Positions 25,701-31,700 of a DNA stretch of 64,000 nucleotides are shown piece by piece. The position numbers were made by a program. The DNA lies in the NCBI GenBank assembly GCA_963795085.1, contig CAWCFX010000001.1:992001-1056000 (forward strand), given 5' to 3'. Origin of the DNA: an uncultured Gemmatimonadales bacterium (GTDB lineage: Bacteria; Gemmatimonadota; Gemmatimonadetes; Gemmatimonadales; GWC2-71-9). Every line of letters begins with the position of its first letter. Within the stretch, counting starts at the first letter, position 1.

Positions 25701-28700
25701 CAAGGTGAGCCTGGCCGGTTCGGGCGGGCCGCAACGCTTGACCGCCGGTCGCTTCGCGGATAACCTATCTCCGACCTGGTCGCCAGACGGGCGGCGGATC
25801 GGCTTCGTGTCCACCCGCTCCGGGCTGCCACAGGTGTATGTTATGGGGGCCGACGGGACGGACCAGGAGCTGCTCGCCCCGTTTGACTACGGTGTCACCG
25901 GGAGTTCCAACGCTCCGGAGTGGTCGCCGGACGGAGCCAGCCTGGTGTTTCACCGCGATGTCTCCCGTTCGCCCCAGGTTTTTGTGCTCGATATCAACAG
26001 CCGGCGGGTTCGCCAGTTGACCTCGTCCGGCCGCAATGAAGACCCGACGTGGGCCCCTGACGGGCGGCACGTGGCTTTCATCTCGGACCGAAGCGGCCGC
26101 CGCCAGCTGTGGGTCATCGACATGGAATCAGGCCGGGTGCGCCAATTGCGCACGTCGGCATCGGTGCGGTTGCCCTCGTGGTCCCGTCACCTGGACGGAC
26201 CCGTTCAATAACCTTTTTATCAGGAGTTCCGATGCGCTTTCCTTTGATGTTGGTTACGCTGGTGGTGGCCGGAGTTGTCGGCGCCGCGTGCGGTGGCAGC
26301 CAGCCGCCGGAGACCTCGACTACGCCCGCGGTAGATACCGCCGCTGCAAACGCCCGGGCCCGCGCCCGCCAGGACTCCATCGATGCGGCCAACCGCGCCC
26401 GCGCCGAAGCCGACCGTCTGGCCCGTGAAGAGGCCGAGCGCCGCGCCGCCGCCGATCGCGCCGCCCGCGACCGGCAGGCCCTGATGACCGACATGGCTGC
26501 GATGGTGCACTTCGACTATGACCGTGCCGACATTCGCTCGGACGACATGGCCAAACTTGACCGCAAGGCCGCCATCCTCAGCGCCAACACCGGTGCCCGG
26601 ATCCGGATCTCCGGCCACGCCGACGATCGCGGCTCCGATGAGTACAACCTGGCGCTGGGCAACCGCCGGGCCGCCGCCGCCAAGCGTTACCTGGTGAGCA
26701 AGGGCATCGCCGACGGCCGGATCGACATCGTGTCCTATGGCGAAGAGCGTCCCACGGCCCAGGGCACCGACGAGGCCAGCTACCAGCAGAACCGGCGGGC
26801 CGAGTTCGAGATCGTGGCGGGCGGCGATAACCTCATGGCGCCGAGATAAGTGGCCGCAATCAGGCGCAGTTCCCGAACCAACAGCAAGGCGCACCACGGT
26901 GCGCCCTTGCTGGCGCTCGGCCTCCTGGTGGTCCTGGGGGGATGTGCCCTCAAGGGCGACGTCAAGCGGGTCGAGACAGAGCTGGCGGCGTTCCGCATGG
27001 AATCCGCGGTCCAGGATTCCATTCGGGCGGCCCGGCTCAACGAAATGCTCGAATTGCAGCAGCGCCTCATGGACTCGCTGGGCTCCAGCATCGTTTCCAC
27101 CGAGCGCGCCGTCCTGGCGATCCGCGGTTCCCTGAGCCAGGACATGTACCGCATCCAGCAGCAGCTGGTGCAGGTCCAGGAGCTGACCGGGCAGAGCCAG
27201 CAGCGGCTGAGCGAGTTACGTTCCCAGCTGGAAACCCGCAGCCAGCAGGCCGCAGCGGCCCCGTCCGATTCCGCCGCCGCCCCGGTGCAGGGCTCGGGTG
27301 GCGGCCCCTCGGCCGACCAGATGTACGAGGCGTCGCTGCAGCAGCTGCGGCGGGGCAGCGTAGCCACGGCGCGAATGGGTTTCCGGCAACTGGTCCAGAG
27401 CCACCCGCAAAGCTCCCGGGTGGCTGACGCACTCTATTTTATCGGGGAGAGCTGGGCCGGCGAGTCTCCCGACTCGGCCGCGCGGTATTACGAGCAGGTG
27501 GTGACGACTTACCCCACATCTACCCGGGCCCCCGGTTCACTGTACAAGCTGGGGCTCCTGGCGGAGCGCCGCCGCGATATCGCCGCCGCCCGGGCCTACT
27601 TCACCCGGGTTGCCCGGGATTATCCACGGTCCGAAGAAGCCGCCCTGGTCCCTGACAAGCTGAAGGCGCTCGGGCAGTAAACCCGGGCGATCCACCGCAT
27701 GGCCCGCGCCAATGGAGAGATGCCGTTCCTCGATCATCTCGAGGAACTGCGGATGCGGATTCTCAAGTCCGCCGGCGCGCTGGTGCTCGGCATGGCCGTT
27801 GGCCTCTTCGTGGTGGAGCGGTTTCAGCTGATCGTCCTGCTGAAACGCCCCATCGAGCCCTACCTGCCCGCCGGGGGCAAGCTGATCGTGACCGGCCCGA
27901 CCGAGCCGGTCATGATCGTCCTCAAGCTCGGATTCACCGTCGGGCTGGTTCTCGCCTCCCCGGTGCTCATCTACCAGCTGTGGGCCTTCCTTTCTCCGGC
28001 CCTCTACGCCCGGGAAAAGAAAGCCCTGGTCCCCGGGCTGCTGATCGGCCTCCTGCTGTTCATGGCGGGCGGGGCGCTGGGCTTCCTGTATATCGTGCCC
28101 CAGGCTCTCCGGGTGCTCTTCAGCTTCCAGTCGGAAGCGCTGGCCCCGTTCATCACCTACGACAAGTATTTCAGCTTCCTGCTCCAGGTGGTGCTGGCGA
28201 TGGGGATCTCGTTCGAGCTCCCCCTGGTCATCATCCTGCTGTCGATTTTCGGGTTGCTCACGCCGGCCGCGCTGCACCGGTTCCGCCGCTTCGCGATCGT
28301 GCTCGCCTGCATCGCAGGCGCGGTGCTTTCGCCCGGAGCAGACGTCATTTCCATGGTGATGATGACGGTCCCCCTGATCTTTCTGTACGAGGTGGGCGTC
28401 GCCGGGTCTTCAATCGTGTACCGGCGCAAGAAGCGGCGGGAGGCGCGGGCGGCCTCGGCGGCCGCGCTGCTCTTTTTCCTCTTCGCCGGAGTGGGAGCGG
28501 TATCGGCCCAGGAGCCGGTGCGGCCCCGGCCCGATTCACTCCGCCCGGCGATCCCCCGGGACAGCCTGCTTCGGGCGCGCCCCGACACGGGTCGCCGCCC
28601 CCGGGCCGGGAGCCAGCTGGACACCGCGACGGCCGCGCGCCTGGGGCTGCCGACCGCGCCCACCCGGAGTTTTCCCGCCCCCGACTCCATCATGGAGGCC

Positions 28701-31700
28701 CTCCTGGCGCGGCCCGGATTCCAGGCAGTGCGCTATCGGGCCGACTCCGCGACCCTGTATGCCGAGGAGCGGCGGATCCAGCTGCGCCGGGACGCGCTGA
28801 CTCAGCGGGGGCAGTCGGTGATGGAAGCCGACAGCGCCATCACCTACGACGACTCCGAGTGCATGATGACCGCCGGCGGCAATCCCCGCCTGTTCGACGG
28901 CGGGTCGGTGGTGGTCTCGAAACACATCTCCTACAATCACTGCATCCGGCGGGCCGTCATCGCCGACGCGCTGACCAATTTCCAGGAGGGATCCACCACC
29001 TGGTTCCTCCGGGGCACCCTGGCCCAGGACTCCAGCTCCAGCCGGCTCTACGCGCATTCCGGAGAGATCACCAGCTGTGATCTGCCGAATCCCCACTATC
29101 ATTTCTCGGCCCGGCAGGTGAAATGGATCTCCAAGACCGTGCTGGTCGCCCGGCCCGCGGTGCTCTACGTGCGCGATGTCCCCATCCTGTGGCTTCCGTT
29201 CATTTTCCAGGATGCCCGGCCGGGGCGGCGGTCCGGCATCCTGGTGCCCCAGTTCGGGATCAACGACATCGTGCGTCCCAATGGAGGCTATAACCGGCAG
29301 GTGACCAACGTGGGCTACTACTGGGCGCCCAACGAGTACTTCGACCTGACCGCCCGGCTCGACTGGTACGCCAATCGCTACACCCAGTATGGCATCGCGG
29401 GTCAGTACCGGTGGCTGAACCGGTTCGTCACCGGCAACCTCGCGTACAACCGCACCTCGGAGAACACCGGGCAGCGCTCCACCAACGTCCGCTGGGACCA
29501 CCGGCAGAGCTTCAACCTCAACACCACGCTCAATTTCAACCTGAACTATGCCAGCAACTCCAGCGTTATCCGGCGCAACGCGATCGACCCGCTCCTGTCC
29601 ACCCAGAACATCACCAGCGCGCTCAACTTCACCCGCCGCTTCGGCTGGGGGTCGCTGACCCTGGGCGGCAACCGGCGGCAGAGCCTCACCGACCGGAGCG
29701 TGACCCAGCAGTTCCCCGCGCTCACCATCAACCCCAAGCCCCTGGATCTGTCCCGGAACCTCACCTGGTCTCCCTCGGTGAGCTTCACCCGGGACGAGAG
29801 CCGCAATACCCCGCGAGGTTTCTTCGTGGTCGCCAATGCGCTGGGCGGGCTGGACTCGGTGGCGGCCACCGAGGATACCCGGCTGACCGCGTTCAACCTG
29901 GACACGCCGCTCCGGTTCTGGGGGTTCAACTGGCGCAACTCCGTCCGGATGACCGACCGGCTGGTGCAGGGCCGTCAGGCGGTGACCTTCCGGGAGGAGA
30001 ACACGGCTACGCCGGAGCCGGGGGACTCGGTGAACGTGACCCGGGTGTTCAGCGGAGATTTCTCGACCGGGGTAGACTGGAATACCGGCATCAATCTGCC
30101 GACACTGGCCCGCTCCACCTTCAAGCTGCAACCCACGCTGGGCATCGACAATATCGTGACCGGGCAGCCCTTTCTCCTCCGCAACCGCAACACCGGCGGC
30201 GACTACGTGGTGCAGGGCAAGCGGTTCGCGCTGTCGATGAGCGCGGCACCCACCGTGTTTGGCTTTTATCCCGGCGTCGGGCCGCTGGCCCGGATCCGTC
30301 ACAGCCTGTCGCCGGTCTTCAACTGGACCTACCGGCCCGCCGCCGAGATCCCGGCCGAGTTCGCCCGGGCCATCCAGCAACCGGGCCGGCCCATCGAATT
30401 GCGCAGCGATCCCAACCAGACGGCCAGCATCAGCCTGTCCCAGTCCTTCGAAGCCAAGGCGCGGCAGGCCCCCGGCGATACGACCGATCCGCAGAATGTC
30501 CGGAAGTACCGGCTGTTGAGCATCTCGACCAGCCAGCTGGCCTACGATTTCGAGCAAGCCAAGAAACCGGGCCGTACCGGGTGGATCACCCCTAGCATTT
30601 CGAACACCTTCCAGAGCGACCTGCTCCCCGGGTTCAACCTGTCGATGTCCCATGACCTGTGGCGGGGGGCGGTAGGGACCGACACGGCGGAGTTCGACCC
30701 GTTTCTCTCCAGTGTGAGCGCCGGGTTCGCGGTTTCAGGGAATACTTTCCGGACCCTCCTGTCGTTCGTCGGCCTGGCCCGGCGGCCGGAGCCCGCCGCG
30801 GCAGCCGCCGGGCAGCGTCCCGCCCAGCCGACCTCCTACGTCGCGGACGTGGGCCGCCGGCGGGGCGGCAGCAGTTTCTACAATACGGACCAGTACGCGG
30901 TGGGGATGGGGCGGGCGTTCACCGCCAACTTCAACTACTCGCTCTCCCGGGCCCGGCCCACCCCGGGCGATGGGATCGCCGATATCGAGCCGCGGCAGAA
31001 CCTCGGTTTCAGCACCAGTTTCTCGCCCACCCCGCTCTGGTCGCTCTCCTGGACCGCCCAGTACAACATCACCGACCGGCAGTTTGAGTCCCACGTGGTC
31101 CGCCTGGAGCGGGACATGCACGAATGGAAGGCCAGTTTCAACGCCATCAAGAACGCCAACGGCAACTTCCAGTTCTTCTTCAGTATCTACCTGAGCGACC
31201 TCCCGGAAGTGAAATTCGACTACGACCAGACCACCATCGAGCGCTAGTCAGCGCAACCTGGATAGGTCGTGCTGTCCTCGACCAGGGACAGCCCCCCGTC
31301 CTTCCCGGGGCGCAACTCGCGGCGGGGCGGCGGGTTAGGGCCGGGGGGCCAGATGGCACACCCCCTGCTTTAACGCCGGCATCCCCACTGGAGCAGACCC
31401 ATGCGAGTCGCGATGTCGGCGGTCCTGTTGAGTGTGTTGTCCCTCGGCTGCCAGGACGAGTTCCTCGGCGGCGGCTCCCTGCTGAACCCCCCGACCAACC
31501 TTACGTACAAGGTCGAACCCAGCGGCACTCCAGGAAGCCCTTCCGGGGTCCTGCTGCAATGGGATTTCAGCACCGATCCGGCCATCGCGGTGTGGCGGGT
31601 GTACTCGCGGGGAAGCAGCTCCGGGTCCTTCCGGCTCCGCGGGTCCACCACCTCCAACACCTATCATGACAACGGCATACCCCACCTCCAGTATTACGTG

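Follow-up and report, generated by a model that had tools for sequence, protein, structure and literature searches.

The closest described system is FbcH of Bradyrhizobium japonicum, in which a single gene reportedly encodes a precursor of cytochrome b and cytochrome c1 (work attributed to Thony-Meyer, James and Hennecke, 1991). This precursor is said to consist of a polytopic inner-membrane protein, an internal signal peptide and a periplasmic-side protein, and to be cut at the signal peptide into two proteins. TatC, another polytopic inner-membrane protein, has a cytoplasmic C-terminus by established topology, and therefore one extra helix is required to place LptD outside when it follows TatC in the same chain. 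A literature search found no paper on a TatC–LptD fusion, as the genome-wide survey's note on this DNA had already reported.

We analyzed a window of 64,000 nucleotides, the whole stretch of DNA presented here, from an uncultured Gemmatimonadales bacterium. The survey's note had described one 1182-residue frame encoding a complete TatC and then an LptD-type protein, and the ORF list, the Pfam and TIGR00945 matches, the alignment to 4b4a_A, and the AF2 and Foldseek results all bear this out. The features of the locus are collected in Table 1.

Table 1 Features of the tatC::lptD locus, with coordinates in the window and residue numbers of the fused protein (↓, predicted cut)
Feature	Coordinates	Strand	Basis or remark
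tolQ, tolR, tolA-like gene (TonB_2), tolB, pal (OmpA domain), cpoB/ybgF-like TPR gene	23080..27680	+	Pfam scan; upstream of the fusion
tatC::lptD, whole fused ORF	27699..31247	+	ATG start, 1182 aa plus stop; ORF listing and translation of the window; both Pfam domains in a single frame
TatC module, residues 1–240, six membrane helices	27699..28418	+	Pfam 12–225, TIGR00945, 4b4a_A alignment, hydropathy
In-frame GTG (Val240)	28416..28418	+	Sole candidate internal start that retains the basic n-region; preceded by no SD-like motif
Basic stretch YRRKKRREARA, residues 241–251	28419..28451	+	TatC cytoplasmic tail and n-region of the internal signal peptide at once; sequence, 4b4a tail equivalent
Hydrophobic core and c-region ASAAALLFFLFAGVGAVSA, residues 252–270, V-S-A end	28452..28508	+	Homologous to N-terminal signal peptides of unfused orthologues
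N-terminal Pro/Arg-rich linker of predicted mature LptD, residues 271–343, begins QEPVRPRP	28509..28727	+	AF2, mostly low confidence, two short helices
Periplasmic beta-jellyroll-like domain, residues 344–458	28728..29072	+	Short strands at model residues 61–175; full-length Foldseek LptD alignments including the N-terminal domain
Large C-terminal beta-barrel, residues 467–1182	29097..31244	+	AF2 strands at model residues 184–896; Foldseek; Pfam LptD_2
tatA	38020..38349	+	No other TatA/B/E-family gene was found in the genome

The fusion starts 18 nt behind the cpoB/ybgF-like gene, and of 79 related loci, 70 have a cpoB-like gene upstream in the same orientation. A 705-residue ORF on the opposite strand (28536..30653) was set aside as the usual by-product of high GC content; the domain matches are all on the + strand. 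The TatC half is complete and takes up approximately residues 1–250. In profile searches of the fused protein, Pfam TatC matches residues 12–225 over profile positions 1–208 of 208 (E 2.5e-58, 197.8 bits), and TIGR00945 reaches 191 bits (cut-off 132.7). Residues 8–254 align to residues 1–242 of the 249-residue solved Aquifex chain 4b4a_A (E 2.5e-48), an alignment that takes in the basic tail behind TM6. Hydropathy segments fall at residues 19–49, 68–102, 107–137, 158–195 and 198–240, the last comprising TM5 plus TM6. The fused gene is the sole TatC match by profile search in its own genome (3.89 Mb in 6 contigs, 93.4% complete), where candidate Tat substrates number three by a strict regular expression and 29 by a loose one.

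Pfam LptD_2 (PF19838) matches the fused protein in two stretches, the best at residues 483–679 (E 1.2e-36). The AF2 model of the barrel part, in which model residue m is protein residue m + 283, has a mean pLDDT of 86.7 and a pTM of 0.72. Within the linker, model residues 1–23 have a pLDDT below 50 and helices are predicted at 26–31 and 47–53; unfused orthologues carry the same kind of Pro/Arg-rich linker. The barrel itself contains one low-confidence loop (residues 1035–1067). When the model was compared with the PDB using Foldseek, ranks 1–37 (30 rows listed) were all LptD or LptDE entries, with 8h1s_A best at E 1.1e-25, followed by TonB-dependent receptors at ~1e-5. By its predicted fold, the barrel part is thus an LptD-type protein. 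PF04453, the canonical LptD profile, gave no match in the genome, fused protein included, and PF03968 (LptD_N) gave none on the barrel part; the NCBIfam LptD equivalogs reached only ~25 bits against cut-offs of 683–944, their weak matches lying over residues 366–523. Among the control genomes, PF19838 matched in Bacteroides thetaiotaomicron only, and PF04453 in E. coli and Caulobacter only.

With one LptD_2 gene and zero PF04453 matches, the fused gene is the only LptD-like gene found in its genome, in agreement with the survey's note. LptC, LptE and LptF/G, which that note had also listed, were recovered by profile searches together with LpxC. No LptA was found in the genome with PF03968 or TIGR03002, which leaves the periplasmic bridge incompletely accounted for. 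Paired with LptE of the same genome, the LptD part gave a predicted complex with an ipSAE of 0.78 (0.76–0.78 across runs; best of three controls 0.00), passing a mark that 116 of 157 solved complexes attain, as do 2 of 215 mismatched pairs, a result that may reflect likeness only because LptDE complexes are already solved. The runs had at least 84% of contacts in common, with a partner pLDDT of 79–80, and the predicted LptE plug contacts are scattered across model residues 327–872. We infer that the barrel acts in LPS export, as the LPS translocon.

The two halves meet at the sequence ...SSIVY-RRKKRREARA-ASAAALLFFLFAGVGAVSA↓QEPVRPRP. Direct indexing makes the −1 Ala residue 270 and the +1 Gln residue 271, which places the predicted cut between nucleotides 28508 and 28509, and the site (V-S-A↓Q) satisfies the −3/−1 rule. 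The survey's note had put an internal signal peptide at residues ~252–283; its basic, hydrophobic and cut anatomy stands, but the end of that range was too wide for a predicted cut at A270↓Q271. Our signal-peptide calls rest on crude custom rules rather than on a trained predictor. By these rules, 126 of the 127 fused proteins have [AGSTVCIL]-x-[AGSC]↓Q behind the hydrophobic core, the exception being an N-truncated entry, and 64 of the 69 unfused representatives have it too; the cut motif, so defined, is as well conserved in fused as in unfused proteins. The −1 residue of the motif-bearing fused proteins is Ala in 109, Ser in 9 and Gly in 8. In fused relatives, the 12 residues preceding the uncharged stretch include a median of 5 R/K; the median length of that stretch up to the cut is 21 residues in the fused proteins and 18.5 in the unfused ones. 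Signal peptidase I, whose gene is present in the genome, would cleave at the predicted A270↓Q271.

In unfused relatives across Gemmatimonadota, tatC lies immediately upstream of the barrel gene, whose start usually falls at the tatC stop or beside it. The two overlap by 4 nt (ATGA or GTGA) in 16 of 31 split loci (8 of 13 and 8 of 18), and in the remaining loci the barrel starts within ~26 nt. These starts are mostly without an obvious SD, and the ORFs behind them begin with M, a basic stretch, a hydrophobic stretch and A-x-A↓Q. Because the barrel gene of these relatives sits at the tatC stop and carries an N-terminal signal peptide with this ending, the internal segment of the fusion is LptD's own former signal peptide.

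Of the 8000 candidates scored, 1556 were relatives at E ≤ 1e-3. Both PF00902 and PF19838 are present in all 120 of those listed (1058–1193 aa, from JGI, ENA, NCBI and Logan), as the survey's note had stated, and the only name given to any of them is TatC. To sample the family we took 61 genera with one genome per genus, counting that of the window. The frame is open across the junction in 52: 44 have a full-length single frame without a stop, two (G016 and G050) each have a stop elsewhere, and in six further genera contig ends cut the gene, yet the junction is crossed in one frame. Of the rest, four have the two genes split but adjacent and two have them unlinked; three were assigned to no state. 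In the unlinked pair (G007 and G012), tatC and the barrel gene are on different contigs, and therefore TatC and LptD work apart. The fusion is retained through deep divergence, down to ~45% identity.

On a FastTree phylogeny of 89 barrel sequences (with a long-branch warning for L029 and L031), fused and split states change at least six times, equal to the minimum forced by well-supported branches. One 64-row clade (support 100) contains 62 fused and two split rows, and a basal clade (G001, G151, G035 and G044) is split. Separate fusions are found in G096 and G133 (both of another family) and in L114 (Longimicrobiales), the signal segment of the last ending in A-A-G↓QEP. On this tree, there were at least four origins of the fusion and at least two reversions to the split state. 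Its retention across the family, as claimed earlier, thus holds for most genera but not for the basal clade, the unlinked pair or the two that split again inside the fused clade; likewise, tatC and the barrel are adjacent genes in unfused Gemmatimonadota, but G096, G133 and L114 fused independently.

A single wrong base in the assembly, or a recent frameshift with loss of function, might have joined two genes in this genome, since fused and split loci differ by a small indel and frameshifts occur in some relatives' long-read assemblies (L096 and L102–L105). The recurrence of the fusion in every one of the 120 listed relatives, which come from four sources, and in 52 of the 61 genera sampled, the coherent clade formed by the fused sequences, and the full-length profile matches and confident fold of both halves leave such an artefact next to no probability. 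By its frame, domains, LptD fold, junction homology and phylogenetic pattern, the locus is a genuine translational fusion between tatC and the Gemmatimonadota LptD-type gene. Were its product left uncut, TatC and LptD would stay joined through a ~70-residue Pro/Arg-rich linker across the periplasm, tying the LPS pore to the inner membrane. The linker (residues 271–343) is indeed long and mostly predicted to be disordered, the fusion has survived deep divergence, and an unusual bridge is conceivable given that two profiles found no LptA. We nevertheless consider a lasting tether very unlikely: the −3/−1/+1 motif is as strict as in unfused orthologues, whose signal peptide must come off; those orthologues possess the same linker; hydrophobic core and c-region together measure a median of 21 residues, as in a signal peptide; and split, even unlinked, arrangements exist inside and beside the fused clade, so a covalent TatC–LptD link is not required.

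The barrel could also be made mainly from a start inside the tatC end, at the GTG of Val240, which would give two overlapping genes in the same frame and little or no polyprotein processing. Initiation at 28416–28418 would give the barrel an ordinary signal peptide, M-YRRKKRRE-hydrophobic-VSA↓Q. An in-frame ATG, GTG or TTG lies between TM6 and the hydrophobic core in 53 of 71 fused loci (four frame-shifted rows dropped); among the full 75 rows, an ATG is present in 12 and an SD-like word upstream in 19. However, none of the three codons is present in 18 of the 71 loci, the residue varies between V, I and L, GTG is the common Val codon here, and the window's GTG has no SD-like motif. The stop overlap and mostly absent SD of split relatives suggest reinitiation after termination, which is lost with the stop, and ribosomes on tatC would read through into the barrel anyway. 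Internal initiation is thus an unlikely main source of the barrel.

The best explanation overall, and one we hold to be likely, is a fusion polyprotein with an internal signal peptide, cut into TatC and LptD. The survey's note had put forward a polyprotein, and the idea is strengthened by the homology of the internal segment to the unfused N-terminal signal peptide, the equally kept motif and the repeated interconversion of the two states. In the ancestral state, still seen throughout Gemmatimonadota, the barrel gene lay directly behind tatC, its start usually overlapping the tatC stop (ATGA or GTGA), so that its translation was probably coupled to tatC already. A small frameshift at the overlap would then have deleted the stop and made the basic cytoplasmic tail of TatC continuous with the barrel's former N-terminal signal peptide. 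We infer translation as one chain: the Sec translocon would insert the six TatC helices co-translationally, leaving their C-terminus in the cytoplasm, and the former signal peptide would become a seventh helix (N-in/C-out) that initiates export of the ~910-residue LptD part. Signal peptidase I would cleave behind V-S-A270, yielding a TatC that retains the signal peptide as its C-terminal seventh helix and is partnered by the separate TatA, and a free mature LptD, from Q271, that would proceed to the outer membrane, receive its LptE plug and serve as the LPS translocon. The fusion is probably near-neutral; for it to be undone, tatC would have to regain a stop codon and the barrel a functional start. 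In one group of soil bacteria, to judge from these sequences, TatC and LptD are probably made as a single chain and cut at LptD's former signal peptide.

Compared with stand-alone TatC (PF00902/TIGR00945; 4b4a, 4hts), the fused TatC is alike in its full-length match, including the basic tail after TM6, but is followed by ~930 additional residues and, after the predicted cut, would keep a seventh helix and a periplasmic C-terminus. Proteobacterial LptD (PF04453, PF03968; 8h1s, 5iv9, 4q35, 9kn3) shares the architecture of the window protein by fold search, a jellyroll-like domain and a very large barrel, as well as the predicted LptE plug. The window protein differs in its sequence identity of only 9–13% in structural alignments, without a PF04453 or PF03968 match, and in its greater length (912 mature residues versus ~760) with an extra Pro/Arg-rich N-terminal linker. 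The separate-gene LptD_2 (PF19838) proteins of other Gemmatimonadota, Bacteroides and Fibrobacterota belong to the same Pfam family as the fused barrel, and those of Gemmatimonadota also share the linker and the A-x-A↓Q signal-peptide end and have tatC directly upstream; unlike the fused barrel, separate-gene proteins start at a codon of their own and carry their signal peptide at the N-terminus. FbcH reportedly has the same order of polytopic inner-membrane protein, internal signal peptide and exported protein. Its two products, however, remain at the inner membrane as parts of a single complex, whereas those predicted to be cut apart here would serve machines unrelated to one another, one for Tat export and one for LPS export; the LptD product, an outer-membrane beta-barrel, would still have to cross the periplasm and fold via BAM.

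The two halves of the protein lie in a single frame of 1182 codons. Pfam placed a complete TatC domain (PF00902) on residues 12–225, spanning profile positions 1–208 of 208 (E 2.5e-58; 197.8 bits against a cut-off of 25.1), and the NCBIfam tatC equivalog TIGR00945 was passed as well (191.1 bits against 132.7). LptD_2 (PF19838) matched in two stretches of the same frame, the best being residues 483–679 (E 1.2e-36). The ORF listing and the Pfam matches thus bear out the genome-wide survey's note, which had described one frame holding a complete TatC and then an LptD_2 part. Residues 1–242 of the solved Aquifex TatC chain 4b4a_A (249 residues) aligned with residues 8–254 of the fusion (E 2.5e-48), and the basic tail that follows TM6 falls inside this alignment. 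A hydropathy scan found the TatC helices plus one extra hydrophobic segment at residues 249–274. Going by the established topology of TatC, we read this half as having six transmembrane helices, its N- and C-termini both cytoplasmic.

The fusion carries the only TatC match in the source genome, which is 93.4% complete. A crude regular expression of our own returned 3 strict and 29 loose twin-arginine candidates there, with typical leaders on, for example, proteins of contigs C1 and C4. Since the only TatC match of the genome is accompanied by a TatA gene and by twin-arginine leaders, the TatC half is presumably functional. The 705-aa ORF that runs antisense to the fusion has no supporting evidence and was set aside as a by-product of high GC content (68% GC).

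Coordinates of the fusion and of the features discussed with it (window positions, except where a locus is named)
Feature	Position	Strand	Remark
tolQ-tolR-tolA-like-tolB-pal-cpoB-like cluster	23080-27680	+	ends 18 nt before the fusion
TatC–LptD_2 fusion	27699..31247	+	ATG start
Val240 GTG, candidate internal start	28416-28418	+	in frame
Predicted cut A270/Q271	between 28508 and 28509	+	from indexing of the frame
705-aa ORF	28536-30653	-	antisense to the fusion
374-aa ORF	31401-32525	+	directly downstream of the fusion
tatA	38020..38349	+	sole TatA/B/E-family gene in the source genome; 7 kb downstream of the fusion
448-aa ORF	1977-3323 of locus L037 (contig C2 of the source genome)	+	overlaps the end of lptC, behind a kdsD-like gene

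The second half has the fold of LptD. An AlphaFold2 model of residues 284–1182, computed from a 70-row alignment, had a mean pLDDT of 86.7 and a pTM of 0.72, only its first 23 residues and one loop being of low confidence. In it, short strands at protein residues 344–458 are followed by long barrel strands that continue to the C-terminus, and the model together with Foldseek indicates a very large beta-barrel preceded by a periplasmic beta-jellyroll. Ranks 1–37 of the Foldseek search against the PDB (30 rows listed) were all LptD or LptDE, including 8h1s_A (E 1.1e-25), 9kn3_A, 5iv9_A and 4q35_A. These alignments covered 693–960 columns at 9–13% identity; the next matches were TonB-dependent receptors, near 1e-5. 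The canonical LptD models PF04453 and PF03968 had no match anywhere in the source genome in profile searches, and the Proteobacteria-type NCBIfam equivalogs NF003358 and NF002997 scored about 25 bits, where their cut-offs are 944 and 683; the model matched instead was the sister PF19838. Among the control genomes, PF19838 matched only Bacteroides thetaiotaomicron, and PF04453 only E. coli and Caulobacter, a distribution that fits PF19838 being the LptD of a wider group of phyla.

This is the one LptD_2 gene of the source genome, and at 93.4% completeness no other LptD-like gene was found in it. The genome also encodes LpxC, LptC, LptE and LptF/G; a search for LptA with PF03968 and TIGR03002 found none. 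On contig C2, the 448-aa ORF, which has no significant Pfam match, stands where we would expect lptA, taking the E. coli gene order as a guide, and could itself be an LptA that has diverged or grown in size. The LptE of the genome (175 aa, with Cys28 after LGG) was predicted inside the barrel with an ipSAE of 0.78 (0.76–0.78 across runs), the best of three controls scoring 0.00; of 157 solved complexes 116 attain the mark used for this score, as do 2 of 215 mismatched pairs. The runs had at least 84% of their contacts in common, and the pLDDT of the partner was 79–80. The prediction may reflect likeness to solved LptDE complexes rather than amount to independent proof.

At the junction the sequence reads ...SSIVY RRKKRREARA ASAAALLFFLFAGVGAVSA / QEPVRPRP, where the slash marks the predicted cut, with Ala at −1 (residue 270) and Gln at +1 (residue 271). 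The survey's note had described a basic stretch, a hydrophobic helix and a signal-peptidase-type site here; that description is accurate, except that its range of residues 252–283 runs slightly past the cut. By our own rules the anatomy of a signal peptide is present: RRKKRRE, 19 uncharged residues and V-S-A/Q. What fails is the N-terminal placement expected of a Sec signal peptide, as the segment begins at residue 241, behind six membrane helices. In unfused orthologues the same segment is N-terminal.

We scored the cut motif in both sets of proteins by one simple rule of our own: position −3 had to be small or aliphatic, position −1 one of Ala, Gly, Ser and Cys, and position +1 Gln, all a short way past the hydrophobic core. 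The rule fitted 126 of 127 fused proteins, the sole miss being an N-truncated entry, and 64 of 69 unfused ones (representatives at 50% identity), at least two of the misses carrying Met at −3. The −1 residue was Ala in 109, Ser in 9 and Gly in 8 of the fused proteins, and Ala in 56, Gly in 7 and Ser in 1 of the unfused; at −3, Ala was found in 82 fused proteins, with Ala in 35 and Leu in 18 of the unfused. The uncharged stretch leading to the cut had a median of 21 residues in the fused set and 18.5 in the unfused set. A signal peptidase I gene is present in the source genome. A twin-arginine (Tat-type) reading of RRKKRR was rejected because the unfused orthologues do not retain a twin-arginine motif and an unfolded barrel would be a Sec substrate; a lipoprotein-type signal for signal peptidase II was likewise rejected, there being no Cys at +1. 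In one relative (G089, locus L021) the basic tail is set apart from the hydrophobic core by an acidic insert of about 30 residues with a high content of Gly, Asp and Pro.

Loci in which tatC and the barrel gene are separate frames point to the origin of this segment. There the barrel ORF has a signal peptide of the usual kind at its N-terminus: Met and a few basic residues lead into a hydrophobic stretch, and A-x-A/Q follows. With its start codon on the tatC stop, the barrel gene overlaps tatC by four bases (ATGA or GTGA) at 8 of 13 split loci of one set and at 8 of 18 of the other; in the remaining split loci the start lies within about 26 nt, sometimes overlapping as TAGTG. Judging from these sequences, a small indel at the stop/start overlap would merge the frames. 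In the fused proteins the basic tail of TatC acts as the n-region, with the hydrophobic core and then the cut site coming directly next. Since the split loci carry the same segment as an N-terminal signal peptide, we identify the internal segment, by homology, as the former signal peptide of LptD and not a new element.

The fusion is widespread among relatives. In a large protein collection, in which 1556 relatives at E<=1e-3 were found among 8000 candidates scored, at least 120 relatives were listed, all with both Pfam domains and 1058–1193 aa long, from JGI, ENA, NCBI and Logan assemblies. Those of the 120 that are named bear only 'TatC', so the LptD of a widespread soil lineage is hidden from surveys of outer-membrane genes. 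We then surveyed 61 genera of the family, with one genome each, the source genome counted and some junctions read directly. Fusion was found in 52 of them. One frame ran at full length and without a stop in 44; in two genomes (G016 and G050) the junction was open and a stop lay elsewhere; and six cut by contig ends (G040, G023, G030, G004, G043 and G056) still crossed the junction in one frame. Four genera were split and adjacent (G035, G001, G044 and G010), two (G007 and G012; loci L153–L156) had tatC and the barrel gene inside different contigs, and three (G011, G014 and G008) were not assignable owing to contig ends.

Several of these loci deserve comment. The stand-alone barrels have their own signal peptide, ending V-E-A/Q in G007 and L-G-A/Q in G012, and the stand-alone TatC of these genomes is only about 44% identical to that of the window. 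At the G050 locus (L157), a TAA within the jellyroll part takes the place of an Arg codon of the window; either the sequence is in error here or the copy is broken. For genus g17 (genomes G016, G186, G126 and G174), '1 TAG' was reported within the full-length match; that it might be an in-frame stop at the junction was dismissed on direct reading, which found the junction open in all four.

A search with an 11-row alignment gave 79 named GenBank loci, from Gemmatimonadota lineages with two labelled merely 'uncultured bacterium'. The junction was fused in 54 and the genes split and adjacent in 18; the others were four frame-shifted assemblies (L102–L105) and three loci without upstream DNA. Wherever upstream DNA was available, tatC lay upstream on the same strand (76/76). 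Phylum-wide, matches were found in all 151 genomes, from 12 families, and outside the family of the window both genes were adjacent on the same strand in 14 of the 14 genomes with both rows listed. In the protein atlas, fused clusters occurred under Gemmatimonadota only, its taxa resting on few members. In loci L096 and L102–L105, which come from long-contig 'MFD' assemblies, the reading frame shifts within the junction or past it and the barrel match is scattered over several frames; indel errors are the probable cause, and the loci were excluded from the tree and flagged in the counts. Three of the genomes are unpublished: G139 accounts for a single adjacency pair among the 14, a single overlap among the 8 of the 13-locus set and a single tree row, G104 accounts for one fused row of the phylum-wide search, and G014 is one of the three unassignable genomes. 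The conclusions rest on none of them.

To follow the fusion through time we built a FastTree phylogeny of 89 barrel sequences, 65 fused and 24 split, having dropped 22 loci with a short barrel match or no complete upstream tatC end. The minimum number of state changes was 6, equal to the minimum forced by well-supported branches, and none of 500 label shuffles came as low as 6. One clade of 64 rows (support 100) held 62 fused and two split sequences (G184 and L100), in both of which the start/stop overlap was restored; its sister within the family (G001, G151, G035 and G044) is split. Separate fusions occurred in G096 and G133, of another family, and in L114 of the Longimicrobiales, and these retained the motif as V-F-G/Q, L-G-A/Q and A-A-G/Q, respectively. 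On this tree the fusion arose at least four times and reverted at least twice. Given this repeated gain and loss, and the two genera with unlinked genes, TatC and LptD need no joining, and the history is consistent with the same mature LptD coming from fused and split forms. The route to fusion is simple, a small frameshift at the overlapping stop and start sufficing, and the fusion then resists reversal. For its long retention we would see the simplest cause in this asymmetry, fission needing a new stop plus a new working start.

How, then, would such a protein be made? In our reading, which we hold to be probable, TatC–LptD would be translated as a single chain and inserted co-translationally, the former signal peptide spanning the membrane as a seventh helix and starting export of the LptD part. 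Signal peptidase I would cut after A270; TatC would retain the seventh helix, and LptD would proceed to the outer membrane and LptE, where we infer a role in LPS transport. It is unlikely that the barrel is instead made by internal initiation at a start codon near the end of tatC. The in-frame GTG of the source genome (Val240) would yield a normal signal peptide, but it has no SD-like word upstream. After subtracting the frame-shifted L102–L105 from 75 loci read as fused, 71 remained (two row pairs being the same genome twice), and 53 of these offer an ATG, GTG or TTG, in most cases a GTG Val codon, in the stretch from TM6 to the hydrophobic core; the other 18 have none, so a conserved internal start is not a family feature. 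The acidic insert of G089 would, moreover, make a poor n-region for a free signal peptide, and would be harmless if the preceding helices set the orientation.

It is very unlikely that TatC and LptD remain joined as an uncut tether; the conservation of the motif is an indirect sign, at the level of sequence, of continued selection for the predicted cleavage. An artefact has next to no chance of accounting for the fusion, with both domains in all 120 listed relatives and 52 of 61 genera fused. We also think it doubtful that the fusion is a distinct way of making an outer-membrane protein rather than a neutral accident, with strict co-translational Sec delivery, 1:1 production with TatC and a permanent seventh helix. 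The signal peptide would then never be released, and the seventh helix, next to TM5/TM6, could alter Tat assembly; in the Tat system of E. coli, the TatA and TatB helices dock at TM5/TM6. As a variant, a fraction would stay uncut, tying the LPS pore to the inner membrane via a linker of about 70 residues.

The surroundings of the fusion also recur. At 70 of 79 related loci the cpoB-like gene is found upstream in the same orientation, so the order cpoB, tatC, lptD is conserved in the phylum. That tatC adjoins the LptD gene phylum-wide, behind tol-pal and cpoB, points to a link, as yet unexplained, between Tat export and outer-membrane growth. The 374-aa ORF on the other side has no Pfam match; a counterpart follows downstream, in the same orientation, at 47 of these 79 loci (about 63–68% identity in the best eight rows), and the atlas gave only Gemmatimonadota 'hypothetical protein' clusters and a faint fn3 lead. 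It may belong to the operon of the fusion.

If co-translational insertion followed by a cut after A270 is correct, the fusion would be an example from nature, in bacteria, of an inner-membrane protein and an outer-membrane beta-barrel produced as a single chain and parted at an internal signal peptide. It would be a convenient system in which to ask whether signal peptidase I handles internal signals behind a protein of several membrane passes, whether export that has to be co-translational is tolerated by an outer-membrane protein of such size, and what becomes of a signal peptide unable to leave. In the literature searched, in which subscription journals are mostly not covered, we found no report of a TatC–LptD fusion and nothing on PF19838. 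The words 'fusion' and 'fused' are absent from the accessible part of a paper bearing on TatC in Gemmatimonadetes (PMC3827258), and the accessible part of one bearing on LptD in Gemmatimonadota (PMC8871954) mentions no fusion. For a bacterial polyprotein cut by signal peptidase at an internal signal peptide, the literature searched gave only a viral case. Closest among the precedents we know of comes FbcH, the cytochrome b/c1 precursor of Bradyrhizobium japonicum, reportedly described in 1991 as a polytopic N-terminal protein, an internal signal peptide and an exported C-terminal protein. The same layout is seen here in the domains, model, alignment and hydropathy. Unlike FbcH, though, the TatC–LptD chain joins parts of two unrelated machines, the second part being a barrel of the outer membrane.
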